A stretch of DNA of 64,000 nt from positions 2,841-66,840 of IMG/VR virus record IMGVR_UViG_2718218502_000001. The stretch is one strand, 5' to 3'. The DNA comes from a virus. The notes below the pieces were generated by a model. It made no database searches. It was not told where the DNA came from and saw only the letters and a list, made by a program, of their open reading frames with translations. The translations under genes were made by a program, and so were the position numbers. Below are positions 572 through 55,114 of the stretch, piece by piece (the stretch's first letter is position 1; each line of letters opens with the position of its first letter).

Positions 572-1114
572 TTAGATTTTAAACCTAGTCATTGCTTTAT
601 CCATTGCATCTTGATTTACACCTATATAACGTAACGTGACCTTCTCTGACGAGTGATTAAATATCTCCATGAGTAATGCTATGTTTTTTGTTTGCATGTA
701 CATGTGATACCCGTATGTTTTTCTTAACGTATGTGTTCCTATTTCATCCAACCCGAACTCTGACGCTGCTCCGCTTAATATCTTATATGCCATGCTACGA
801 CCAATAGGACGATTCTTACCTTGTCTGCTTTGCAATAAATACTCATTGTCTTCCCTTTCTTCAATAAACCATTTCAGTTCTCTTTTCAGTGCTGCAGTAA
901 TTTGTATTCGTTTCTGTTTCCCTGTTTTCTTTTCTCTCATAGATATATGACTGCCCTTGACATCTCCTACCTTCAGTTTCAAAATATCCGAGATTCTAAG
1001 ACCTGTATTAATGCCCATAATGAAGAGAATGTAATTACGTAAGCTCTTTTCCTTAAAATACTCTTTAAGCTGCTGTATTTGCTCTGGATCACGTATTGGT
1101 TGAACGAAATTCAT
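572..1114 (-). CDS. Minimal tyrosine recombinase (180 aa, catalytic domain only)
   Basis: GLRISD (R), HTLRKT (HxxR), NHSS (H), LRYIG (Y) catalytic residues; no N-terminal arm-binding domain. Confidence 0.92.
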   Translation of the reverse strand: MNFVQPIRDPEQIQQLKEYFKEKSLRNYILFIMGINTGLRISDILKLKVGDVKGSHISMREKKTGKQKRIQITAALKRELKWFIEEREDNEYLLQSRQGKNRPIGRSMAYKILSGAASEFGLDEIGTHTLRKTYGYHMYMQTKNIALLMEIFNHSSEKVTLRYIGVNQDAMDKAMTRFKI

Positions 1115-2538: not shown

Positions 2539-2640
2539 GAATAAAATTCAATATTCCGTCCATACTATAAATGCACTTGAGTTCTGAACTTCCTTCTTAA
2601 CGTTTTTCTGGAGAGCAGTTAGCTTTTGCTAGCTGCTCTT
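2539..2640 (+). ncRNA. Candidate sRNA cassette, SigG-type promoter
   Basis: GAATA(2539)-N17-CATACTA(2561); CTTCCTTC; terminator GAGCAGTTAGC/GCTAGCTGCTC; no ORF. Confidence 0.5.
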
Positions 2641-2788
2641 ATTTTCTGTAATTGGTTTCATTTACCTGATGTTTTCAACGTAATATTACGTTACGATATA
2701 AAAGGATAAAATATATTTGGCTGTTATATCATTACCCTAGGGAACTAGGTTTTTTTTACACAAAATGAAATTTTTATTTAACTTTCTT

Positions 2789-2910
2789 GCATAGCATTTT
2801 CGCTTCTGCGAATACTATGGTTGTAATTTGCAATTACACAATTAACATTTAATAAGCACCGTTTTCTTTTTTTACCAGAACAGCTAGCTAATCACGCTAG
2901 CTGTTTTATT
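2789..2910 (+). ncRNA. Candidate sRNA cassette, SigG-type; family with 5381 and 51458
   Basis: GCATA(2789)-N17-AATACTA(2811); TGTAAT/ATTACA hairpin; terminator AACAGCTAGC/GCTAGCTGTT. Confidence 0.5.
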
Positions 2911-2940
2911 GTATAAAATGAAGTTTTTATACGATTTTAA

Positions 2941-3035
2941 ACACATTTAAAAATAAATTCATATGATATTACGTATTCCTCTCTTTTACAAAATGGATTT
3001 GGGTCAGAAGAGCACTTTTACGAAGTGCTCTTTTC
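2941..3035 (+). ncRNA. Candidate sRNA cassette, SigK-type
   Basis: ACAC...CATATGATA(2960); ATTCCTCTC; terminator AGAGCACTT/AAGTGCTCT plus T run. Confidence 0.45.
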
Positions 3036-3406
3036 CCATGGAATTAAAGCTCTACTGAATAGCGTTTTTGTTTAGTTTCACTCTAAAAGTAAAATTTTCA
3101 TTTTTTCATTCAACCAAGTTCATAACATATTCTTTTCCCCCGATAAAATAATGATTAAGTGTCCCATGCGCATTTTATCCACTGGAAATAATACCTTTCA
3201 CGTACTTACGTATTAGAAACTTCATTTCTGCTTCTTCTGCAATAGCAATTTTGTTCACTTTTTTGATACATTTATGAAACATTCACATGTTATCTTCAAT
3301 ATGTTCTATTCTTTTTGAAAAACCATGTGAGAATACCAAAACAAGAAGCCCTAGAGCCCTAACTCTAGGGCTTCTTGTTTTCAAATAAGGATTTTGTTAA
3401 AAAACT

Positions 3407-3496
3407 GCACATTTATTAAGAACATGCATAAAATATAATGTGGTATTCTTTTTCAATATTATTGTTTATCCGAGAGCGCCTTGAATGGCGCTCTTT
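3407..3496 (+). ncRNA. Candidate sRNA cassette, SigK-type; family with 5517 and 52980
   Basis: AC(3409)-N16-CATAAAATA(3427); GTATTCTTTTTCA core; terminator AGAGCGCC/GGCGCTCT. Confidence 0.5.
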
Positions 3497-3603
3497 AATT
3501 TTCAAATAATTACGAGAGCGGATTTTATTATGTTGTACAAGCACTACTTCGCTTTATTAAATAGACTATATTGACATCTAAAAGAAGGGAGCTTTAAATT
3601 CAT

Positions 3604-4068
3604 ATGGCTGATTACTTTTATAAAGATGGTAAAAAGTATTATAAAAACCAAGCGCATTCGGACCCTCAAAAAAATAACTGTTTTGTTGAGACTCATACAA
3701 TTGGTGGTTCAGGAGTAAATTTAAATGGAAATATACCTATATCTATCGACCTCCTAGATACCACTCCACAAACAGTATTTGAAGATTTCACCAACAATCA
3801 CAATAAAACATTAATTCAGTTATTTGTTGTCGGCATGAGTGCCCCCGTTCAAGTAACTATTCTAACAAGAAGATCTAGCCTACCAATTACTACTACATTA
3901 CAACCCGTTCAAACAAAAATATTTCAAGTTGAAGATTTTCAAAGTCTTACTTTTACAAAGCAGGAAGGTCCTGCTAGTGTAGTTAGTTTATTTATTCAAA
4001 AAACATTTTGTATCTGCTGTAACGATAATAACGATTCATGTAATGAATATTACCACGAGTGCAATTAA
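3604..4068 (+). CDS. exsD: Exosporium protein D-like
   Basis: MADYFYKDGKKYYKNQ...KTFCICC matches my recollection of B. cereus ExsD; RBS AAGGGAG; terminator AGAACTCTTT/AAAGGGTTCT downstream. Confidence 0.75.
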   Translation: MADYFYKDGKKYYKNQAHSDPQKNNCFVETHTIGGSGVNLNGNIPISIDLLDTTPQTVFEDFTNNHNKTLIQLFVVGMSAPVQVTILTRRSSLPITTTLQPVQTKIFQVEDFQSLTFTKQEGPASVVSLFIQKTFCICCNDNNDSCNEYYHECN

Positions 4069-4171
4069 TAGATTAAATTGCCAGAAGAACTCTTTATATA
4101 AAGGGTTCTTTTCTTTTCACTCCCCTCATTTCCCCGTTTTTTATTAAAATAACTATTTTGTTATATTCCTT

Positions 4172-4270
4172 GCACTTTTAAATGAGACAAGCATATGTTG
4201 TAGTATAATGTTTCATCACTTATTTACACTTCCTTTTTTCAAGAGTACATATTCGATATGTACTCTTTTT
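4172..4270 (+). ncRNA. Candidate sRNA cassette, SigK-type; paralog of 5758-5860
   Basis: AC(4174)-N16-CATATGTT(4192); ACACTTCCTTTTT; terminator AGAGTACATAT/ATATGTACTCT; bounded by sites 4147 and 4282 (135-bp unit). Confidence 0.55.
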
Positions 4271-4496
4271 ATATCACTATAAAATAACGCTTTTATTTAT
4301 TTTTTAATACGCTTTTCCCAAAAAACATGCACTACCCCATCACCATCAAATTAAAATCTAATAGATTCCCAGAACGAAAATTTTAACTTTCTTGTAACAA
4401 CGAAGCTCTGTTATCGTTTTTGGAATACTTCATAACCTTAGCTTGATAGGCATAGGGCAAGACCCCTAATTTAGTAATTTACGTAGTACATGCCGT

Positions 4497-4525
4497 AACC
4501 AAATCTATTAATCTAACATATTGTA
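4497..4525 (+). promoter_or_regulatory. SigK-type promoter of the 128-aa gene
   Basis: AACC-N16-CATATTGTA matches the B. subtilis SigK consensus mACm-N16-CATAnnnTA. Confidence 0.6.
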
Positions 4526-4575
4526 TAAAAGTGACTTTAAACCTATAAAAAAGTTGCTAAGGAGGTTAATATAAA

Positions 4576-4962
4576 ATGGCATCATTTGAAATTGGAGCAA
4601 GATCTCTTTTCAATTTTCGAAACGAACGCTTTTTCTTATTAGTTGAAGATGAAATTACAATTCCAGATAAAGGTGTAGAAATTGATCCAGTTAATATCTA
4701 CGAAATTGATCAGCAAACTTTCAATTTTATCAGAGATGAAGGAGATACACCTGTAATTGAACCAGTTGATACACTTCCAACTGTACCACCTGGATTTAAA
4801 TTAGAACGAAAATGTATTTTCACAGTCGACAATTCATACTTTGTAATATACGATTTAGAAGATGGAACTGATAACAACGTCCTATTAAGAATCAGTGCAG
4901 CATTATTTAATTCATTAAGAAATTCTGGTGTTCGTGAATGTTTTCCTCAAAATTTCATTTAA
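4576..4962 (+). CDS. Hypothetical protein with two-fold internal repeat, probably mother-cell expressed
   Basis: RBS AAGGAGG; acidic 128-aa ORF; two similar halves; SigK-type promoter. Confidence 0.8.
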   Translation: MASFEIGARSLFNFRNERFFLLVEDEITIPDKGVEIDPVNIYEIDQQTFNFIRDEGDTPVIEPVDTLPTVPPGFKLERKCIFTVDNSYFVIYDLEDGTDNNVLLRISAALFNSLRNSGVRECFPQNFI

Positions 4963-5112
4963 GAACTTAAATTAATTAGACCTCAAATGGAATACTCTTT
5001 GAACAATTTAACCCCTCGTAGTTTTCTACAAAGGATTAAATTGTTATGTAAAAAGTTTTTTTAATTAAATGGAGCAGTTAATGCAAATGACTGCTCTATT
5101 TTAATTTTCATT

Positions 5113-5236
5113 ACATAAACTTGATATTTTTGTCCATACTATACAAAACTCACGAAATATTTATACTCCTTAAATTCGTGAATGTAATGTTCTTATAGCA
5201 GTTAGCCTATGCTAGCTATGCTAGCTGCTCTCTTTT
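5113..5236 (+). ncRNA. Candidate sRNA cassette, SigG-type
   Basis: ACATA(5113)-N17-CATACTA(5135); TCACGAA/TTCGTGA hairpin with ATACTCCTT in the loop; GCAGTTAGC-family terminator. Confidence 0.5.
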
Positions 5237-5261
5237 GCATTTAGTTAAAAATAAGTTTTAG

Positions 5262-5360
5262 GTCTTATTCCTTTTCTATAACATATACTTTTAACCTAAC
5301 CGTTCAGCTCAAAGTGTTACCTCCTATCTTAAAGAGCACTTATGCATGGTGCTCTTTTTT
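5262..5360 (+). ncRNA. Candidate sRNA cassette, near-identical to 51311-51409
   Basis: CATATACT -10-like element; TTACCTCCTATC anti-SD; terminator AGAGCAC/GTGCTCT plus T6; 95/99 identical to the prophage copy. Confidence 0.55.
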
Positions 5361-5380
5361 ATTTTATTTTTTTCATCTCT

Positions 5381-5497
5381 GTATAACATTTTCAACCCTG
5401 TTCATACTATTTTTGTAACTTAAAGTTACAAACTATTTCTGTAAGCGGAGCGTTTCTTTTGTACAACAAGCAGTTAGTTTTATTAACTAGCTGCTTT
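5381..5497 (+). ncRNA. Candidate sRNA cassette, SigG-type
   Basis: GTATA(5381)-N17-CATACTA(5403); TTGTAACT/AGTTACAA hairpin; AAGCAGTTAG/CTAGCTGCTT terminator. Confidence 0.55.
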
Positions 5498-5516
5498 GTT
5501 GTCCAAAAGAAAGATC

Positions 5517-5608
5517 TGCACATGTATTAAGAACATACATAAAATATCATGTGGTATTCTTTTTCAATTTTAGTTTTGGTCATGGAGCGCCTTAAAAAGC
5601 GCTCTTTA
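5517..5608 (+). ncRNA. Candidate sRNA cassette, SigK-type; paralog of 3407-3496
   Basis: CTGCACAT(G/T)TATTAAGAACAT(A/G)CATAAAATAT shared with the 3407 unit; GAGCGC/GCGCTC terminator. Confidence 0.5.
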
Positions 5609-5641
5609 TATTTGCAAATAACCATTTCGTTCAAACATACA

Positions 5642-5726
5642 CACGATTTATATAAACTAAGCATATATTTACATAGACAAGACATAGCTTTTACTATACA
5701 TGCACAATTTTTGTGCATGTTTTTTT
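5642..5726 (+). ncRNA. Candidate sRNA cassette, SigK-type; family with 53086
   Basis: AC(5643)-N17-CATATATT(5662); AGACAAGACATAG core; ACATGCACAA/TTGTGCATGT terminator; bounded by sites 5616 and 5735. Confidence 0.5.
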
Positions 5727-5757
5727 GTTCAACACAATAACTATTTTGTACATTCCT

Positions 5758-5860
5758 TGCACCTTTAAATGAGGCAATCATATGTTGTAGTATTATGTTT
5801 CATCGCTTATAGGAGCCTCCTTTTTTTCAAGAGTACATATTTGATATGTGCTCTTTTTTC
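5758..5860 (+). ncRNA. Candidate sRNA cassette, SigK-type; paralog of 4172-4270
   Basis: GCAC-CTTTAAATGAGGCAAT-CATATGTT; GCCTCCTTTT; AGAGTACATAT/ATATGTGCTCT terminator. Confidence 0.55.
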
Positions 5861-5872
5861 ATTCTCCTATAC

Positions 5873-6005
5873 GAATAATCTTTTTTACATTACACAAACT
5901 ATCCTCAAGTCAACTTCCCATGACTACACTCTTTAAAAATGGAGCTTTACCCCTCCGGACTTTTTAGGCACACGGCAGGTAACTTAGTCAATTACCTGCC
6001 ATTTT
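5873..6005 (+). ncRNA. Candidate sRNA cassette, SigG-like
   Basis: GAATA(5873)-N17-CAAACTA(5895); TTACCCCTCC; GGCAGGTAA/TTACCTGCC terminator. Confidence 0.45.
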
Positions 6006-6094
6006 CTATTCAAATAACGCATTTGTTTAATGAAAATCAATTAACTATAATTTGAAAAATCGGAAACATTTACTCAATGATTTTTCTGAATACT

Positions 6095-6190
6095 CATACT
6101 ATTATTTATGTGCTGATGTTCACCATCCCAAGAACTCAGTAATATCATCCACAGGCTCCACTCTCACCCTTTTGAGAGTGGAGCCTTTAT
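6095..6190 (+). ncRNA. Candidate sRNA cassette (only the -10 element recognised)
   Basis: CATACTA at 6095; 12-bp stem GGCTCCACTCTC/GAGAGTGGAGCC. Confidence 0.35.
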
Positions 6191-6239
6191 TTATAAGGAT
6201 TATCCTCAATATTTATTTTTATAAAATTCAAATTTGGTC

Positions 6240-6749
6240 TTAATATCCGTTATCTTGGCGCTGGTGGTTCACTTCATTCTTTTTGTAATAACCTTGCTCA
6301 ATCTCTTCAAATGTGATTCCTAATTTCTTACCTAAACCTAAGAACGAGTACAATAATTCCTCATAAAGCTCAATGTCTTGAGTTGCACGAAATTCCGATA
6401 CAGCTTCATATACATTGTTAAATTGATTTACTAGCTTACTTGCGGTATAGACGTTTGCATTATGTTCTAATAACTTCAGGCTATATTCATTAGGATTAAA
6501 TCCGATGCCATTCCCTAATGAAGATATAAAATGAAATCCATCTACATACTCCATTAAAATAACTTCTTTTTCACTAGGTCCTTTATTGCTCCAATGCTTA
6601 AAGCATCTTGTTTCATTTGCAAGTTCTCCAATTTCAACCTGTAATGCAAGAATCATATTGTAAAATAAATTTTGCCCTTCTAATCCATGCTCCTCAATGA
6701 TTCTTGTATCTAACACCTTTTGCATTCTGAATATTTTAGTTAAATTCAT
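6240..6749 (-). CDS. dut: Dimeric (all-alpha) dUTPase
   Basis: EIGELANETRCFKHWS, EYVDGFHF, KKNEVNHQRQDNGY motifs of the dUTPase_2 family. Confidence 0.88.
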   Translation of the reverse strand: MNLTKIFRMQKVLDTRIIEEHGLEGQNLFYNMILALQVEIGELANETRCFKHWSNKGPSEKEVILMEYVDGFHFISSLGNGIGFNPNEYSLKLLEHNANVYTASKLVNQFNNVYEAVSEFRATQDIELYEELLYSFLGLGKKLGITFEEIEQGYYKKNEVNHQRQDNGY

Positions 6750-8538: not shown

Positions 8539-8760
8539 GTGATTTATATGAGCAAGTTCCGAGAGAAGATGATTAAATATTTGCAAACATTTTGGGGATG
8601 CTTAGCATTTGGTGTATTAATGTTTGCTATCTTCTTAATTACGGATTTAACAGATGCATCTTTAAATACATTAGGCTGGAGAGACTGGCTAGGTTCTGTA
8701 GCAGGCGCAACCATTTTATCTGTTGGGATGTTTACTTTAAATAAATTGAATTTAAAATAA
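8539..8760 (+). CDS. Small 2-TM membrane protein (moron)
   Basis: Two hydrophobic segments in 73 aa; opposite to phage genes. Confidence 0.6.
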   Translation: MIYMSKFREKMIKYLQTFWGCLAFGVLMFAIFLITDLTDASLNTLGWRDWLGSVAGATILSVGMFTLNKLNLK

Positions 8761-8866
8761 ATATTCGGTCAATACTGTATGTAGGCTGTATGCCAACATT
8801 CATTTAAAGTAGTCTTCTCTGTATCTCCTTGTATTGAGCAGTTAGCTTTTGCTAGCCGCTCTTTTA
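8748..8866 (+). ncRNA. Candidate sRNA cassette, SigG-like; family with 50923
   Basis: ATATTCGGTC-AATACTGT; TATCTCCTTG; GAGCAGTTAGC/GCTAGCCGCTC terminator. Confidence 0.4.
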
Positions 8867-8945
8867 TTTTGTTCCGGTTCTTGCCCTATCTACTTTCCCC
8901 CAATAAGTACACATATCTATTCCCCATTGCTACAAAATGAAATCT

Positions 8946-9090
8946 TTATTTTGTTTTACGGATCGCTTCTTCAATTAGCCAAGATACAATATTAAAATCA
9001 TTAGCTTCACCCTTTAAAGATGTTCCCTTCCAAAAGTATTCTTTCATCACTTCAAATAATTCTTCAACAGCTTCAATTCATCTCATATTC
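8946..9090 (-). pseudogene. Small gene cassette between sites 8935 and 9107, internal TGA
   Basis: RBS GAAAGGGAAA directly after site 9107; MNMR*IEAVEELFEVMKEY...RKTK; stop overlaps site 8935. Confidence 0.5.
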
Positions 9091-9184
9091 ATTTTCCCTT
9101 TCTCCCAAATAACTATTTTGTTTTACTAATTAGCTGATTAATTTCACAAACACCTTTTAAACATTCCATGTTTCTTCACCTCTT

Positions 9185-9296
9185 GAATATTTTTCAAACA
9201 AAAATACATACTATTTTCAAGCCGCCGTTTCCACGGCTAATACCTCTTTCTTTTGTTACAGCAAAAGCAGGTAGGTTCTTCACTTATCTGCTTTCT
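9185..9296 (+). ncRNA. Candidate sRNA cassette, SigG-type
   Basis: GAATA(9185)-N17-CATACTA(9207); AGCCG/CGGCT hairpin; ATACCTCTTTC; AAAGCAGGTAG/TTATCTGCTTT terminator. Confidence 0.5.
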
Positions 9297-9645
9297 CTGT
9301 ATATTTTTTAAGAAATCGAAAATAATACCAACAAGCTGTTTGAACTAGCAGCTTCACTCTTCTCGCAATGGGGATGCAAATTATCACAATTAGCTAACTC
9401 ATTGAACTCACTGGCAGACAACCAAAATCGTTGTCTGCTTTTTGTATGAGATTTTTCGTTTTACATATACTACTTTTGAACCTGCAGACCAATACGAGCC
9501 ATTTTGGTGCTTGGGATTTCCCTTCCGGGGATAAGTATTTTTTACTTATCCCTTTTTTGTATAGACACGTATATTTAGGGTAAAACTAATTACAAGCAGA
9601 TTTTCTGTTTATGCGTAGTTCTAAACAAGATTACTTTTTCTCCTA

Positions 9646-50681: not shown

Positions 50682-50897
50682 ATGCCTTCTGTCGTTGGAA
50701 ATCTTGTCGTTCAAAACAGTAATGGTGCTTTCAATTTAGGGGATTTTTATAACGTATCTCCAAAAGAGAATACAAAATCTTATAATGGTTCAGGGGCATC
50801 AAATGTTTCTTTTGTTGTTAATACCTTTAACGGTGTTAGTGCAACGAATACATTTGATTCTGATGTTGCTGATCAAGACCAAGTTGTATCAAGTTAA
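50682..50897 (+). CDS. gerPF: Spore germination protein, GerPA/GerPF family
   Basis: MPSVVGNLVVQNSNGAFNLGDFYNVSPKENTK...SATNTFDSDVADQ; SigK-like CATATACTA at 50639. Confidence 0.88.
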   Translation: MPSVVGNLVVQNSNGAFNLGDFYNVSPKENTKSYNGSGASNVSFVVNTFNGVSATNTFDSDVADQDQVVSS

Positions 50898-50922
50898 AAT
50901 TATTTATTTCCCTCTCCCCCTT

Positions 50923-51043
50923 GAATAAAACTCGATATTCCGTCAATACTGTGCATAGGCGATAGCCAAAACTCATATTAATGAACCTCTATCAGCAGTA
51001 GTTCCCTGACCTGAGCCAGTTAGCTTTTGCTAGCTGCTCTTTT
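50923..51043 (+). ncRNA. Candidate sRNA cassette, SigG-like
   Basis: GAATA-N17-AATACTG; promoter region nearly matches the 2539 unit; CAGTTAGC/GCTAGCTG terminator. Confidence 0.45.
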
Positions 51044-51048
51044 AATTA

Positions 51049-51166
51049 CACATTTTTGTCTTAACACTCATATAATATTGTGAATTTAAAAATCATTTCA
51101 TGTTTAAAGGAAAAGTATTCTTTTTCATTACTCCACTCCCTCTTTAAATAAGGTTTTTAAAGAGGG
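51049..51166 (+). ncRNA. Candidate sRNA cassette, SigK-type
   Basis: CACA-N16-CATATAATA(51069); GTATTCTTTTTCATTACTCCACTCCCTC; CCCTCTTTAAA/TTTAAAGAGGG stem. Confidence 0.55.
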
Positions 51167-51287
51167 AATACATTAAAAAAATCTTGGTTACACTGTAAAC
51201 AGGCTCGTGAATAGCCAAATTTACTAATACCCACTCTATGTCTATTACCTTGGGCCGAGCAATTAGCAAAAGCTAATTGCTCTTTTA
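51166..51287 (+). ncRNA. Candidate sRNA cassette (promoter weak)
   Basis: GGCT/AGCC hairpin; GAGCAATTAGC/GCTAATTGCTC terminator; no ORF. Confidence 0.35.
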
Positions 51288-51310
51288 TATTGAGTTAATA
51301 ATAAAATTTA

Positions 51311-51409
51311 GTCTTATTCCTTTTCTACATCATATACTTTTAACCTAACCATCCAGCTCAAAGTGTTACCTCCTATCTTAAAGAGCACTTATGCATGGTG
51401 CTCTTTTTT
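51311..51409 (+). ncRNA. Candidate sRNA cassette, near-identical to 5262-5360
   Basis: 95/99 identity; TTACCTCCTATC anti-SD; AGAGCAC/GTGCTCT terminator. Confidence 0.55.
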
Positions 51410-51457
51410 AGTTTCCTTATTTCTACAAAATGAAATTTTTGTTTAGTTTTCTTACCT

Positions 51458-51580
51458 GCATAATATTTTGATATTTGTTTATACTATAGTTGTAACTTTT
51501 TGTTACAACATATATCCGTATCGATTGTAACTTCTAAAATTGTACAACGGAGCAGTTAGCTATTTCGGCTAGCTGCTTTG
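51458..51580 (+). ncRNA. Candidate sRNA cassette, SigG-type; family with 2789 and 5381
   Basis: GCATA-N17-TATACTA(51480); GTTGTAAC/GTTACAAC hairpin; GCAGTTAGC/GCTAGCTGC terminator; bounded by sites 51428 and 51588. Confidence 0.55.
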
Positions 51581-51814
51581 TTGTTTAAAATGAAGTTTTT
51601 ATTTAGTTTCACTGGTATTGTTCACACTAGGACTAGTACCGCCAAAACATTAGAACAACTGACATAAACGTCACATTTTTGCCAAATTTTATAATTTATT
51701 TTCAGAATCTACAAAATATTGCATTTTTCTCTTTTTTCTATTGGTATAATCGGGCTGTCTATCAAAGTTATAGAAAAATTGATAGAAAATTACTAATAGA
51801 ATGGAGATGTTTTT

Positions 51815-52066
51815 ATGTTTAAAAAATTAACTATTGGAACATTTGCAATTGGTATTATGTTCTCCGGTGTTACTGGTGTATCTGCGGCACAAATAAATGA
51901 TGCACCGCTCAAAGCTTCTGATAACAAATGTGCACAAAAAAAGCATAAATTTTCTCAGTTGTTTAATTCTCCAAAGGTCCCAGAAAATTATACAAAGAAT
52001 GGCGTTACAGGAAAGTTAGTTTGTACTTATGAGGGGCCAGTAGGTTGGATTGGTTACTATAATTAA
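51815..52066 (+). CDS. Secreted peptide, LCI-fold antimicrobial-like
   Basis: Sec signal peptide MFKKLTIG...VSA; C-terminal GWIGYY resembling LCI WVGIY; two Cys. Confidence 0.6.
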   Translation: MFKKLTIGTFAIGIMFSGVTGVSAAQINDAPLKASDNKCAQKKHKFSQLFNSPKVPENYTKNGVTGKLVCTYEGPVGWIGYYN

Positions 52067-52092
52067 TAAGTAACCTATCAATACAAGTTGGC

Positions 52093-52302
52093 TCACATCT
52101 CTCCCTCGCTTTTTTCATAATAGGCGAGGGATTTTATTTCAGATGTACTTATGCTTATAAAACCAACATCTTCACTTTCTACTAAAATAGCTTTTTTGTT
52201 TAAATCCACTTTTTTTAACTGTGGCTTTACTAATACTTTTGTGCTAAAATCCACTAGGATATTTATTTTAAAATTATTTTTGGAGGCTTTATGAATAATC
52301 AA
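52093..52302 (-). CDS. Hypothetical or 3' fragment of a phage gene
   Basis: No clear RBS; overlaps the start of the + strand ORF. Confidence 0.35.
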   Translation of the reverse strand: MIIHKASKNNFKINILVDFSTKVLVKPQLKKVDLNKKAILVESEDVGFISISTSEIKSLAYYEKSEGEM

Positions 52303-52755
52303 AACAACAATGAAACAAACAACAGCAATAGACTATTGGCAATTTTTCTAATAGTATCACCACTATTAATACCTATCGTGCTCCCTACAGCCATAATTGT
52401 AGGAATGAAACAATGGATGCCTGATGATGTTGAATACCCAAGTATAATGTCACTATTGACCTTATGTATTGGATTTTTCATAGTTGGGATCATTTTCTCT
52501 TTCGTATTACGGGTATTTAAATTATCTGAAGAAAAGCTAAAAGAATTAGGTTTCTTAGGATTTACAATTTCAATTGTTAGTACCTTTTTGACAATGTATG
52601 TCGGATATTTTGGGCTAGCAAAACTTAATTTCACAGCAGTGCAATTATCACCACATGCTGTATTAATCTTTGCGATTTTATCTACAATTCTTTTAGAAGC
52701 AATATTTAAGTTGATTGATAAATTTGATACACCTGATACAAAAGAAACACTTTAA
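52291..52755 (+). CDS. 4-TM membrane protein
   Basis: Four hydrophobic segments; RBS GGAGG; AGAGCACAT/ATGTGCTCT terminator. Confidence 0.8.
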   Translation: MNNQNNNETNNSNRLLAIFLIVSPLLIPIVLPTAIIVGMKQWMPDDVEYPSIMSLLTLCIGFFIVGIIFSFVLRVFKLSEEKLKELGFLGFTISIVSTFLTMYVGYFGLAKLNFTAVQLSPHAVLIFAILSTILLEAIFKLIDKFDTPDTKETL

Positions 52756-52841
52756 TAGATATTAAAATGATTATCTTAGAGCACATATCAACATGTGCTC
52801 TTTTTTCTTTTAACCAAATAACGATTTTATCTAAATCCATT

Positions 52842-52950
52842 CACTAATCTCAGACTTTGACATACAATAATAGTGCCTTTCTATATAATGTGAGTTCGTC
52901 ACTGTCGTTATAATGAGGTATAAGGAGCGCTCTCGATTAGCGCTCTTTTT
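52842..52950 (+). ncRNA. Candidate sRNA cassette, SigK/SigE-type
   Basis: CAC-N16-CATACAAT(52861); GAGCGC/GCGCTC terminator; bounded by sites 52816 and 52955 (139-bp unit). Confidence 0.55.
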
Positions 52951-52979
52951 ATTTAAATAAAGATTTCATTTTAAAATTA

Positions 52980-53068
52980 CACCTATCTAAAAAACATCCA
53001 TATAATATCTTGGGTGTTCTTTTTCAACCTTATTTTTAGTCAGAGAGCACTTTTAAAAGTGCTCTTTT
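52980..53068 (+). ncRNA. Candidate sRNA cassette, SigK-type; family with 3407 and 5517
   Basis: AC(52981)-N16-CATATAATA; GTGTTCTTTTTCA core; AGAGCACTTT/AAAGTGCTCT terminator. Confidence 0.5.
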
Positions 53069-53085
53069 AATTTATTTAGATGTAT

Positions 53086-53175
53086 CACGTTTTACATACA
53101 ATAAACATAAAATGCAAAGAGCAGACAAGACATAGTTTTTATATAATCGTGTACATTTTTTGTACGCGATTTTTT
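53086..53175 (+). ncRNA. Candidate sRNA cassette, SigK-type; family with 5642
   Basis: AC(53087)-N17-CATAAAAT; AGACAAGACATAG core; ATCGTGTACA/TGTACGCGAT terminator. Confidence 0.5.
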
Positions 53176-53194
53176 AATTAAATAAGAATTTTGT

Positions 53195-54175
53195 TTAAAA
53201 ATGATTTATTAATTCCAACTGAACATTATTTAGTAATCTATCAGATATCTCTATATAACCAGGATTTAATTCAATACCAATAAAATTCCTATTATGCTTT
53301 GCAGCGACACGACCAACTGTACCTGAACCGAAGAATGGATCCATAACAATTCCTTCAGCTGGCGCCCCAGCTAATATGCAAGGTTCAATTAATGCTTCCG
53401 GAAATGTAGCAAAATGTGCTTCCTTCAATGGTTTTGTTGATACTGTCCAAACCGACCTTTTATTTCTTTTATCCCGAATCGCTCTAAATGCTTCATGGCC
53501 ATATTTACCGTTAAAGGAGCCTTTCTCTTTGCTTGTTCTTTTTGCTCTTTGTGGCGGACCAAATGCACCTTCCGAACCTCGAACATCTTGTTGGCCATAA
53601 ACTGCTGGCTCTTTAATACTTTCGTGATCGTAATAGTATTTAGGTGACTTACTTAATAAGAAAATATATTCATGTGACTTAGTAGGTCTATCCCTTACAC
53701 TCTCTGGCATTGCATTTGGCTTGTTCCAAATGATATCTTGTCTTAAATACCAACCATCTTGCTGTAAAGCGAAAGCTACTCGCCAAGGTAAACCGATTAG
53801 ATCCTTTGGTTTTAATCCATCTACTGATTTTGTGATTGAAACAATTCCGGTAACTTGGCCAACACTTTGAAAATGATTGTTACCTGGATTCCCTTTTCCA
53901 TCTGCATTTCTTCCACGTCCACTTCCAGCATATGCATCACCTAGATTTAGCCAAAGTGTTCCGTCATCCCTTAGTACACGCTTTACTTCCCGAAAAACTG
54001 ATACAAGGTTGTCCACATATTCATCAACTGTATTTTCTAATCCAATCTGTCCATCTACCCCGTAATCACGTAATCCCCAATATGGAGGACTCGTGACCAC
54101 AGTACTCACAAAATTATCCGGAAAAGCTTTTAGTACGTCTAAACAATGTCCTGGGTAAACTTTATTTAGTTCCAT
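53195..54175 (-). CDS. Orphan DNA methyltransferase, beta class (N4-C or N6-A)
   Basis: VTSPPY (motif IV) near N-terminus, DPFFGSGT (motif I) near C-terminus; bounded by sites 53180 and 54199. Confidence 0.93.
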   Translation of the reverse strand: MELNKVYPGHCLDVLKAFPDNFVSTVVTSPPYWGLRDYGVDGQIGLENTVDEYVDNLVSVFREVKRVLRDDGTLWLNLGDAYAGSGRGRNADGKGNPGNNHFQSVGQVTGIVSITKSVDGLKPKDLIGLPWRVAFALQQDGWYLRQDIIWNKPNAMPESVRDRPTKSHEYIFLLSKSPKYYYDHESIKEPAVYGQQDVRGSEGAFGPPQRAKRTSKEKGSFNGKYGHEAFRAIRDKRNKRSVWTVSTKPLKEAHFATFPEALIEPCILAGAPAEGIVMDPFFGSGTVGRVAAKHNRNFIGIELNPGYIEISDRLLNNVQLELINHF

Positions 54176-54345
54176 TCCTATCCTCCCCTTTTCGATTAAA
54201 ATAACTATTTTATTAAAAATCTTTAATGAGCTAATCCTTACAATTTTGTAATACTAATGTCACTGAAATCAATTTTTTCACTATAAACTCTTTACTATAA
54301 TTTTCCTTATAAAGTTATAAACACACAGTAAGGAGCGGCTTAAAA

Positions 54346-54945
54346 ATGTCTTTTTCTCAATTAAATATTGATGCTTTTCGAGCAATCAATGATTTAGGGA
54401 AGTCATATTCATCCCTAAACTCAACTATGGTATTTGTGGCGGAATATATGGTGTATTTTTTAGGTTTAATTATTATGGCTTATTGGTTTACTCAATCTAG
54501 AAAAAACAAAATGATGATTATTCAAGCGATGGTCGCTTTCGTAACTGCTGAAATAATCGGAAAATTAGCAGGGAATTTGCATTTGAATTATCAACCATTT
54601 GCAGTATTACCTAATGTTAATAAACTTGTCGATCATGCAGTAGATAATTCATTTCCTAGCGACCATACGATTCTATTTTTTTCAATTTGTTTTTCATTCT
54701 GGCTTATTCGTAAAAAGGCTAGATGGTTATGGCTTGTACTTGCATTCTGCGTAGCTATTTCTCGTATTTGGGTAGGAGTTCATTATCCTTTCGATGTAAT
54801 AACAGGAGCTTTAATAGGAATTATTTCAGCGCTATTTTCATATTGGTTAACACCGAAAATTACATTCATCAAACAATTGCTTAATCTTTACGAAAAAATA
54901 GAACAAAATGTAATACCATCCAAAAACAAGTCAAAAAACTTTTGA
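54346..54945 (+). CDS. bcrC: Undecaprenyl-pyrophosphate phosphatase, PAP2/BcrC-like
   Basis: SFPSDH, SRIWVGVHYPFD PAP2 motifs; several TMs; bounded by sites 54199 and 55042. Confidence 0.9.
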   Translation: MSFSQLNIDAFRAINDLGKSYSSLNSTMVFVAEYMVYFLGLIIMAYWFTQSRKNKMMIIQAMVAFVTAEIIGKLAGNLHLNYQPFAVLPNVNKLVDHAVDNSFPSDHTILFFSICFSFWLIRKKARWLWLVLAFCVAISRIWVGVHYPFDVITGALIGIISALFSYWLTPKITFIKQLLNLYEKIEQNVIPSKNKSKNF

Positions 54946-55114
54946 TTAATCTCACAAAGCTAAAAAGATTACATATATTACCGAGTATTTTTCAATATTG
55001 TCTTGATCAAAGAGCGCTCCCCTGGGTGCTCTTTAATTTTAAAATAACGCTTTTATTAAAAAACGAACATTCAACTTAAATCGCAGCTGACAATCCAATC
55101 CAAATTCCGAACAT

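Follow-up and report, generated by a model that had tools for sequence, protein, structure and literature searches.

What might be the role of a run of short transcription units that a prophage of the Bacillus cereus group carries on the strand opposite to its own genes? The run, here called array 1, occupies positions 2539-6190 of the stretch of DNA analysed (the window, 64 kb in length), which comes from a 74.6-kb provirus record and is assigned to the B. cereus group. The prophage that contains it is related to PHBA67-J and in parts to Wbeta, Gamma, Cherry and Fah, and array 1 is best explained as the lysogen-side cargo ('moron') region of this Wbeta/Gamma-like prophage. A similar array, at about 50,900-53,200, belongs to a second prophage within the window, and a third, mini-array is present at 8,740-9,560. 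It is probable that the units are real plus strand small RNA (sRNA) genes, whichever way the RNAs act. The fuller statement, that these sRNA genes are under sporulation control and that their products pair through C/U-rich loops, we hold with about equal belief and doubt.

An earlier note on this DNA, made from its letters, described about 13 stacked units free of open reading frames (ORFs), each running from a promoter to an intrinsic terminator. The stacking is real, with 14 short plus strand units, but the region is not ORF-free: two plus strand genes of 154 and 128 amino acids (aa) and a conserved 35-aa minus strand ORF are interspersed. In the full tally, 14 units have an assignable promoter-like site, one conserved unit (U1b) has none, and there is one orphan terminator. 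The features of array 1 are as follows; RBS denotes a ribosome-binding site.

2539..2648, plus strand: U1, family A; -35 GAATA at 2539, -10 CATACTA at 2561-2567, body with GAACTTCCTTCTTAAC, constant terminator at 2611-2640 followed by a T-run
2660..2757, plus strand: U1b, conserved short unit; terminator at 2736-2749 followed by T8, no assigned promoter
2789..2912, plus strand: U2, family A1; promoter-like GCATA-N17-GAATACTA, 5' hairpin TTGTAAT..ATTACA, terminator at 2881-2906
2941..3040, plus strand: U3, mother-cell-type; AC-N17-CATATGAT, body ATTCCTCTCTTTT, terminator at 3008-3034
3175-3282, minus strand (the phage strand): conserved 35-aa ORF (MFHKCIKKVNK...) inside the array, from tblastn against fetched loci
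3354..3380, plus strand: orphan terminator GAGCCCTAACTCTAGGGCTT with a T-rich tail, no assigned promoter
3409..3502, plus strand: U5, family B; AC-N16-CATAAAAT, 13-nt core GTATTCTTTTTCA at 3443, terminator at 3472-3495
3604..4068, plus strand: exsD-like gene of 154 aa with an RBS; terminator at 4083-4112
4174..4273, plus strand: U7, family C; AC-N16-CATATGTT, body ACACTTCCTTTTTTC, terminator at 4241-4267
4576-4962, plus strand: ORF of the 128-aa gene; RBS AAGGAGG, promoter-like AC-N17-CATATTGTA at 4498, terminator at 5067-5101
5113..5236, plus strand: U9, family A; ACATA-N17-CATACTA, hairpin with a UACUCCU loop, terminator at 5197-5230
5263..5363, plus strand: U10, mother-cell-type; TCTTATT...CATATACT, unpaired GTGTTACCTCCTATCTT, terminator at 5331-5357
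5381..5506, plus strand: U11, family A1; GTATA-N17-CATACTA, 5' hairpin TGTAAC..GTTACA, long terminator stem at 5462-5500
5520..5612, plus strand: U12, family B; 83% identical to U5, same core at 5554, terminator at 5584-5605
5643..5727, plus strand: U13; AC-N17-CATATATT, terminator at 5698-5720, related to a unit at 53087-53177
5761..5861, plus strand: U14, family C; AC-N16-CATATGTT, body GGAGCCTCCTTTTTTTC, terminator at 5829-5855
5873..6006, plus strand: U15, family A; GAATA-N17-CACAAACTA, two hairpins with C-rich loops CUUCCCA and UUUACCCC, terminator at 5974-6000
6094..6192, plus strand: U16; -10-like CATACTA at 6094-6100 with the -35 unassigned, body with CCAUCCCA, strong terminator at 6153-6186

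The signals that delimit these units are concentrated on one strand. Between 1500 and 7500 there are 14 intrinsic-terminator-like sites on the plus strand, compared with 2.0 +/- 1.6 in dinucleotide shuffles, and a single weak site on the minus strand; a second scan, of the whole window, also places the plus strand terminators preferentially in the arrays. The SigK-type motif AC-N16/17-CATAnnnT occurs seven times on the plus strand of array 1 and never on the minus strand (shuffle mean 0.94), and 12 of its 18 plus strand sites in the whole 64 kb fall in the two arrays. SigK-type sites had been claimed in the earlier note, and the enrichment agrees with this, although the units at 2941 and 5520 were missed there and the site given as 5759 starts at 5761. 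Its forespore (SigG) pattern, GHATR-N17-CATACTA, is exact at 2539 and 5381, but has one mismatch at 2789 (GAATACTA) and at 5113 (ACATA as the -35) and fits poorly at 5873 (CACAAACTA). Ten homologues of U15 read CACATACTA where the present copy (5895-5903) has CACAAACTA, and the -10 of this copy may be weakened. A SigA reading of the mother-cell-type promoters was rejected, the SigA-like hexamers that were flagged not being conserved positions; recognition of the AC...CATA promoters by SigA is still conceivable.

The units of family A belong to a large family. The comparison set consisted of about 240 fetched loci (viral contigs and genomes): a scan of viral contigs with the hairpin common to U1 and U9 gave 119 stretches, and a scan of genomes with the exact 24-nt form of the hairpin gave 120 more, whose titles are all Bacillus (B. 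cereus-group species) except for one Bacillaceae bacterium and one labelled Paenibacillus. The copies are clustered, with 2-9 per genome. About 312 unique units are built on one scaffold: a -35 TGAATA, a spacer of variable sequence that is 17 nt long in 269 units and 18 nt in 43, a -10 CATACTA or AATACTG with a conserved G three bases before it, as in forespore promoters, a hypervariable body of 25-100 nt, and a terminator hairpin, GAGCAGTTAGC-TTTT-GCTAGCTGCTC, that includes a conserved U-G pair and is followed by a T-run (present after 130 of 140 exact family hairpins). At least 79 unrelated types of body can be told apart. Of 143 family promoter matches, 118 reach a terminator within 150 nt downstream (median 71 nt) and only three are followed by an RBS and an ORF, with a terminator intervening about 60 nt past the promoter. 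The family-A promoter is dedicated to short units.

Thirty-six isolated phage records contain a family-A unit, in none of which it is annotated as an RNA. Wbeta has two units of array-1 families, likewise unannotated, one of which is matched also in Gamma, Cherry and Fah; counterparts of U2, about 88% identical, occur unannotated in all four of these phages. Rfam returned no match at the gathering threshold in the whole window, and even at E <= 1 it gave nothing but two microRNA hits to a terminator hairpin, due to chance. In the literature searched we found neither a published description of this unit family nor its terminator sequence. The family is large and, in the papers and databases searched, undescribed. 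The constant family-A hairpin is also seen at the ends of plus strand protein genes, at L001:5293 (a 1164 nt gene in PHBA67-J) and similarly at L132:6866, L176:504 and L182:4683, and is therefore a shared module that is not exclusive to the RNA units. A separate observation concerns 'Staphylococcus phage SpaA1' (HE614281.1 / NC_018277.1), in which the family-A unit has the same identity and span as in Bacillus phage BceA1; this suggests that the real host range of SpaA1 lies in the B. cereus group.

Conservation is not confined to family A, for every unit of array 1 is conserved in other B. cereus-group prophages, and the best-kept parts are the promoter hexamers and the terminator. The array-1 units outside family A have 4-20 distinct homologues each, in which conservation falls on the promoter hexamers, the terminator and short stretches of the body; in the mother-cell-type units, AC and CATA are invariant among 19-20 homologues. 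U5 has 19 homologues in which AC and CATA are the invariant positions, one of them in Wbeta (L002:4381-4484). U1 has 42 unique full-length homologues and a fold z of -3.7, U3 has 8 and a z of -4.9, U16 has 5 and a z of -7.9, and U7, which is 83% identical to U14, has a z of -5.9. The 10 homologues of U1b are 75-98% identical, and its whole-RNA fold z is only -0.3. Within U1b there is also a perfect 16-bp palindrome, AACGTAATATTACGTT, at 2677-2692, operator-like in appearance.

Which strand is under selection, and is it selected as RNA? When 26 units of the U11/U2 type are aligned, 97% of the cells in the 5' hairpin and terminator stem are paired, and the alignment contains 15 double-change cells, compared with 5.2 +/- 1.8 after shuffling; none of 500 shuffles reached 15. 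The stems frequently alternate between A-U and G-U or carry U-G, where the opposite strand would show A-C mismatches. The G-U pairs and compensatory changes fit a plus strand RNA only, and selection therefore acts on the plus strand RNA. Bodies also fold better than their shuffles on this strand (median z -1.05, compared with -0.55 for the minus strand), and a 5' hairpin opens 61 of the 79 body types. A 5'-terminal hairpin is expected of RNAs that are protected at the 5' end. The bodies are unlikely to encode peptides: indels between homologues are not multiples of three, and no start codon, ORF or RBS is conserved on either strand. That U5 might be an attenuator leader for transcription of the exsD-like gene was considered and discarded, since no gene follows either of its siblings, U12 or the unit at 52,981. 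The prediction that the units are small RNA genes is well supported by this comparison, through the conserved promoter and terminator, the plus strand pairing, the non-coding bodies and the dedicated promoter.

How might such RNAs act? Array 1 would consist of about 14 independent sRNA genes of 50-100 nt, every one of them equipped with a promoter and an intrinsic terminator and running counter to the phage operon. Family A (U1, U2, U9, U11 and U15) would be expressed from a forespore-type promoter read by sigma-G or sigma-F, its bodies being swapped between constant ends, and the other classes (U3, U5, U7, U10 and U12-U14) from mother-cell-type promoters, AC-N16/17-CATAnnnT, read by sigma-K or sigma-E. 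Exposed C/U-rich loops or tails, resembling the 16S 3' end, would pair with the RBSs of host or phage mRNAs during sporulation. The anatomy of the units, their family and pattern of conservation, the selection on plus strand RNA structure, the non-coding character and the spread as modules are shown by the comparison of sequences; we infer the transcription, the sigma factors, the RBS pairing and any effect on the spore from the features of the units and their surroundings.

There is a strong circumstantial case for sporulation control, made up of the promoter consensus, the conserved positions and spore-related neighbours. The B. subtilis forespore consensus is TGAATA-17/18-CATACTA, and the positions conserved over about 300 family-A units coincide with it. 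No Sigma70_r2 or r4 domain was found in the 74.6-kb record, and the likely readers of these promoters are therefore sigma factors of the host. Many B. subtilis sRNAs depend on sporulation sigma factors, and the sigma-E/F/G/K-dependent sRNAs of Bacillus have been summarised (PMC12456014). Among the neighbours, a gene of the gerPA/PF family lies just upstream of the second array; the match of the 154-aa gene of array 1 in a plasmid record is annotated 'exosporium protein D', and that of the 128-aa gene in plasmid match H42 'spore coat protein'. The 154-aa exsD-like protein has no Pfam or NCBIfam match and the 128-aa protein no Pfam match.

The C/U-rich anatomy is, by analogy, that of the Firmicute C-rich-motif sRNAs that block ribosome-binding sites. 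The CU-rich stretches that the earlier note had pointed out are where it placed them (TTACCTCCT at 5317, ATACTCCTT at 5163, GCCTCCTT at 5815, ACTTCCTT at 2588 and 4228, and ACCCCTCC at 5949) and are predicted to be unpaired. Over the family, 31% of bodies contain a stretch of at least 6 nt that is identical to the 3' end of 16S rRNA, whereas the antisense strand gives 7% and shuffles give 11%, and C-rich 4-mers in bodies have a mean predicted unpaired probability of 0.68. Among body designs the most frequent is the hairpin UCUCC-(U/A)UUCCCCCUU-GGAGA, whose loop holds the C-run. The U10 segment UUACCUCCUAUCUU agrees with the 16S tail ACCUCCUUUCU at 10 of 11 positions and is almost invariant, and TTACCTCC is nearly invariant over 17 U10 homologues despite a variable 5' body.

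Several results weigh against the fuller statement. Within array 1 by itself CU-rich words show a modest strand bias, CTCC occurring 7 times on the plus and 9 times on the minus strand and TCCC 10 times and twice; the CU-rich enrichment is unclear in array 1 and clear only at the scale of the whole family. A search of five genomes gave no extended complements of the bodies; the complement of the unit at 51,085, which resembles an RBS plus start, matched only the same unit in another genome. No antisense match of at least 18 nt to the bodies was present in 2 Mb of related DNA, and BLAST of the bodies against the loci gave only other units. The 5' hairpin TGTAAC-N6-GTTACA is almost invariant and may for that reason be an operator in the DNA and not a stem in the RNA. 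The putative sigma factors are read from the consensus only, and in a positive control the promoters of small acid-soluble spore protein (SASP) genes in one B. thuringiensis genome were not fitted by the simple forespore pattern. Contigs from RNA libraries cover parts of the array with no discrete ends and no strand information, and could be DNA; raw RNA-library reads on the array number 5 and 64 per run, and those of the deeper run are split evenly between the strands. Lastly, a hypervariable body between conserved signals is also expected if the act of antisense transcription alone matters. As an observation apart, RNA-library run X25 holds a contig of 1086 nt at a depth of 896 (others in the run are at 8-134) with a U11-type unit that has 10 differences (window 5398-5508); it may be a highly expressed U11 paralogue of another strain.

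The alternative that survives best, although we regard it as unlikely, is that the arrays act in cis, as antisense RNAs or through transcriptional interference. Convergent, sporulation-timed promoters placed between the early genes on the dUTPase side and the gene of the late activator ArpU would make the plus strand transcription run into the phage's minus strand transcript, or pair with it, the body sequence would hardly matter, and the lytic programme would stay silent in forespore and mother cell while the prophage is packaged into the spore. The units are indeed antisense to phage transcription, as the earlier note had it, for they lie on the plus strand and the flanking phage genes are all on the minus strand:

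572-1114, minus strand: tyrosine recombinase gene, 180 aa
1114-1596, minus strand: ArpU-family late regulator gene
6240-6749, minus strand: dUTPase gene

In the direction of phage transcription the arrays lie directly upstream of arpU and its neighbour, the recombinase gene; about 50 of the 240 loci include both of these genes, and units are on the opposite strand in 94% of cases. Many family-A promoters also abut the RBS of the next minus strand gene. Constant promoters and terminators around hypervariable bodies would be expected of interference, and the search for trans targets was empty; no specific target having been found, action in cis is the main alternative. However, an opposite orientation would be needed in any case, because the terminators would otherwise stop phage transcription, and units also occur where no minus strand gene follows, for example beside the plus strand gerPF-like gene at 50,921. 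The bodies, moreover, are constrained: they have conserved 5' hairpins, C-rich loops and near-invariant seed-like segments (in U10, U1 and the family-B core), and fold better than shuffles.

A second alternative concerns the way in which the arrays are assembled and is compatible with either RNA function. It views the array as a cassette library in which units bounded by a junction motif are shuffled by site-specific recombination, through the adjacent 180-aa tyrosine recombinase; we consider this improbable. The 16-nt junction motif AAATAAVNMTTTYRTY has 12 matches, compared with 0.14 expected, all of them within arrays, at unit boundaries, and mostly just past a terminator:

3383-3398, 4147-4162, 4282-4297, 5616-5631 and 9107-9122, plus strand: junction motif copies
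52816-52831, 52955-52970, 53180-53195, 54199-54214 and 55042-55057, plus strand: junction motif copies
2764-2779 and 8936-8951, minus strand: junction motif copies

In other strains, homology breaks and re-joins at junction points, 5725 (the end of U13) being joined to 4146/4148 before U7, and loose homology ends are found at 3384, 3398, 4294 and 6024. U10 has a near-identical copy at 51311-51409 in the second prophage, and identity falls outside the unit, where the flanks diverge. From the breakpoints at junctions and the near identity of U10 in both prophages it follows that units move as modules, and the earlier idea of a mobile library is supported: one scaffold carries no fewer than 79 types of body, and homology ends at unit boundaries. 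The recombinase gene is frequently close by. However, against the integron-integrase profile the recombinase scores 30.7 bits, far under the cut-off of 265, and so it is not an IntI-type integrase by that measure; Wbeta carries units without such a recombinase nearby (in the 8 kb shown), and the units have their own promoters, which integron cassettes do not. Several family-A boundaries are without the junction motif. The motif sits 8-12 nt upstream of the -35 of mother-cell-type promoters, and it could be a recombination site or an activator or UP-like element. Ordinary homologous recombination at short conserved flanks would account for the mosaicism equally well.

A bolder form of the same idea, which we put forward as a speculation with little claim on belief, is that family A is an exchangeable library of programmable RNAs, with a fixed forespore promoter, a fixed 3' hairpin that might be a protein handle, and a swappable 'guide' of 25-100 nt, shuffled at the 16-nt site by a minimal tyrosine recombinase. 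It would be integron-like with sRNA genes as cassettes, and would serve for reprogramming of the developing spore or protection of the phage in it.

It is very improbable that the units are inert remains, either moron cassettes that have lost their content or intergenic DNA in decay that has kept promoter-like and terminator-like signals. Neighbouring phage genes are partly decayed, as in the in-frame stop ahead of the 35-aa ORF, and the -10 of U15 is weak in this copy, but the units span the whole B. cereus group and occur in viable isolated phages, the family promoter almost never drives an ORF, and the compensatory changes and G-U pairs point to selection. Scarcely credible is the last alternative, that the CU-rich stretches are complements of the Shine-Dalgarno sites of tiny minus strand genes, or that the units are antitoxin RNAs facing small toxin genes in type I toxin-antitoxin systems: a minus strand RBS-plus-ATG pattern does occur in 22% of bodies compared with 8% of shuffles (examples are AAGGAGAAAG-N7-ATGGGTTGTCTACAGTATTGA and a 7-11 codon frame opposite the unit at 51,085), but it is seen in a minority of bodies, the frames, of 1-14 codons, differ in length and phase between close homologues, no hydrophobic peptide gene overlapping the units was found, and the plus strand micro-ORF of U5 and U12 (MWYSFSIL...) is lost in relatives through 1-nt indels and missing start codons.

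Are there precedents for sRNA genes of this kind? The LhrC1-5 sRNAs of Listeria monocytogenes are chromosomal, tandem multicopy sRNAs with CU-rich/UCCC motifs, near-identical to one another and controlled by LisRK. Like them, the units here are sibling genes of about 100 nt in tandem, with separate promoters and terminators, and with C/U-rich loops, which in LhrC pair with RBSs. Unlike them, the units are phage-borne, have sporulation-type promoters and completely different bodies, and show no sequence similarity and no Rfam match. RsaE/RoxS of the Bacillales are C-rich-motif sRNAs, RoxS being a single conserved gene of the core genome; they share with the units a 5' hairpin, unpaired C-rich motifs, an intrinsic terminator and a presumed action at Shine-Dalgarno regions, but they are not homologous (by Rfam), have other regulators, and are not a variable phage family.

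SurA, SurC and CsfG are sporulation-controlled sRNAs of B. subtilis. Bvs196 of B. velezensis is another such sRNA (PMC9147052). These four are reminiscent of the array-1 units in being small non-coding genes with forespore or mother-cell sigma-type promoters, which here are predicted; but they are single chromosomal genes, most without a known target, whereas the units comprise dozens of types on one scaffold, in phage arrays and in the B. cereus group only. Enterobacterial prophages also carry RNAs as lysogenic-conversion cargo, among them DicF, IpeX and the anti-sRNAs AgvB and AsxR of enterohaemorrhagic Escherichia coli, at conserved positions of lambdoid prophages and in many variants. Those sRNAs are Hfq-dependent, vegetative and Gram-negative, and we know of no link to sporulation or constant-scaffold architecture described for them. 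The type I toxin-antitoxin RNAs RatA, SR4, SR5 and SR6 of B. subtilis prophages (PMC5848175) are likewise short prophage-borne RNAs with their own promoter and terminator and antisense to their neighbours; unlike in those systems, no partner toxin ORF was found here. Integron cassette arrays are similar in having stacked modules, a recurrent short imperfect palindrome and a tyrosine recombinase gene beside them, but each unit here has a promoter of its own and a predicted RNA in place of a promoterless ORF, the recombinase is under the IntI threshold, and the 16-nt site is not attC-like. Of LhrC, RsaE/RoxS, the Bacillus sporulation sRNAs and the enterobacterial prophage sRNAs not one is homologous, nor does any of them unite carriage by phages, promoters of sporulation type and a constant scaffold that bears dozens of body types. 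The closest analogues are LhrC and RsaE/RoxS for anatomy and presumed action, the Bacillus sporulation-sigma sRNAs for timing, and the enterobacterial prophage sRNAs for carriage.

The sister arrays are similar and have their own cargo:

8740..9560, plus strand: mini-array; a family-A unit at 8740-8870, further units, and terminators at 9413-9439 and 9527-9553
50682-50897, plus strand: gerPA/PF-family gene (Pfam E = 2e-23), preceded by AC-N16-CATATACTA
50921..53182, plus strand: array 2, in the second prophage; family A, family B and other units mixed with plus strand genes
51815-52066: second-array cargo gene of 83 aa, whose product looks secreted (by eye)
52291-52755: second-array cargo gene of 154 aa with a weak, sub-threshold Yip1 match
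53195-54175, minus strand (the phage strand): N6/N4 DNA methyltransferase gene
54346-54945: PAP2 phosphatase gene, undecaprenyl-diphosphatase-like

Two observations concern the minus strand in and around array 1. The 35-aa ORF directly follows an in-frame stop, and the 33 codons before that (3175-3384, minus strand, taken together) are kept as well in loci L018 and L193; together they would be a small gene that has been split, or else a conserved leader. Beyond the array, a heptamer tandem repeat, (TAATAAC)n with about 6-7 copies, lies at 1989-2037 in or beside a small minus strand ORF, and slippage could shift the frame of that ORF.

In one published case, B. anthracis lysogenic for Wbeta formed spores under conditions in which its parent strain did not (PMC2716549). 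Should the RNAs prove to be made, temperate B. cereus-group phages, among them relatives of the classical anthrax-typing phages Wbeta and Gamma, carry dozens of sporulation-timed riboregulators beside spore-related cargo. This would add a large sRNA family to bacteria in which few are known, and one with an unusual design, a constant promoter and terminator around a variable body; the strongly conserved forespore and mother-cell promoters are possible compact genetic parts. It would also offer a concrete route by which lysogeny could alter sporulation, and one by which a prophage could stay silent while it is sealed into the spore.

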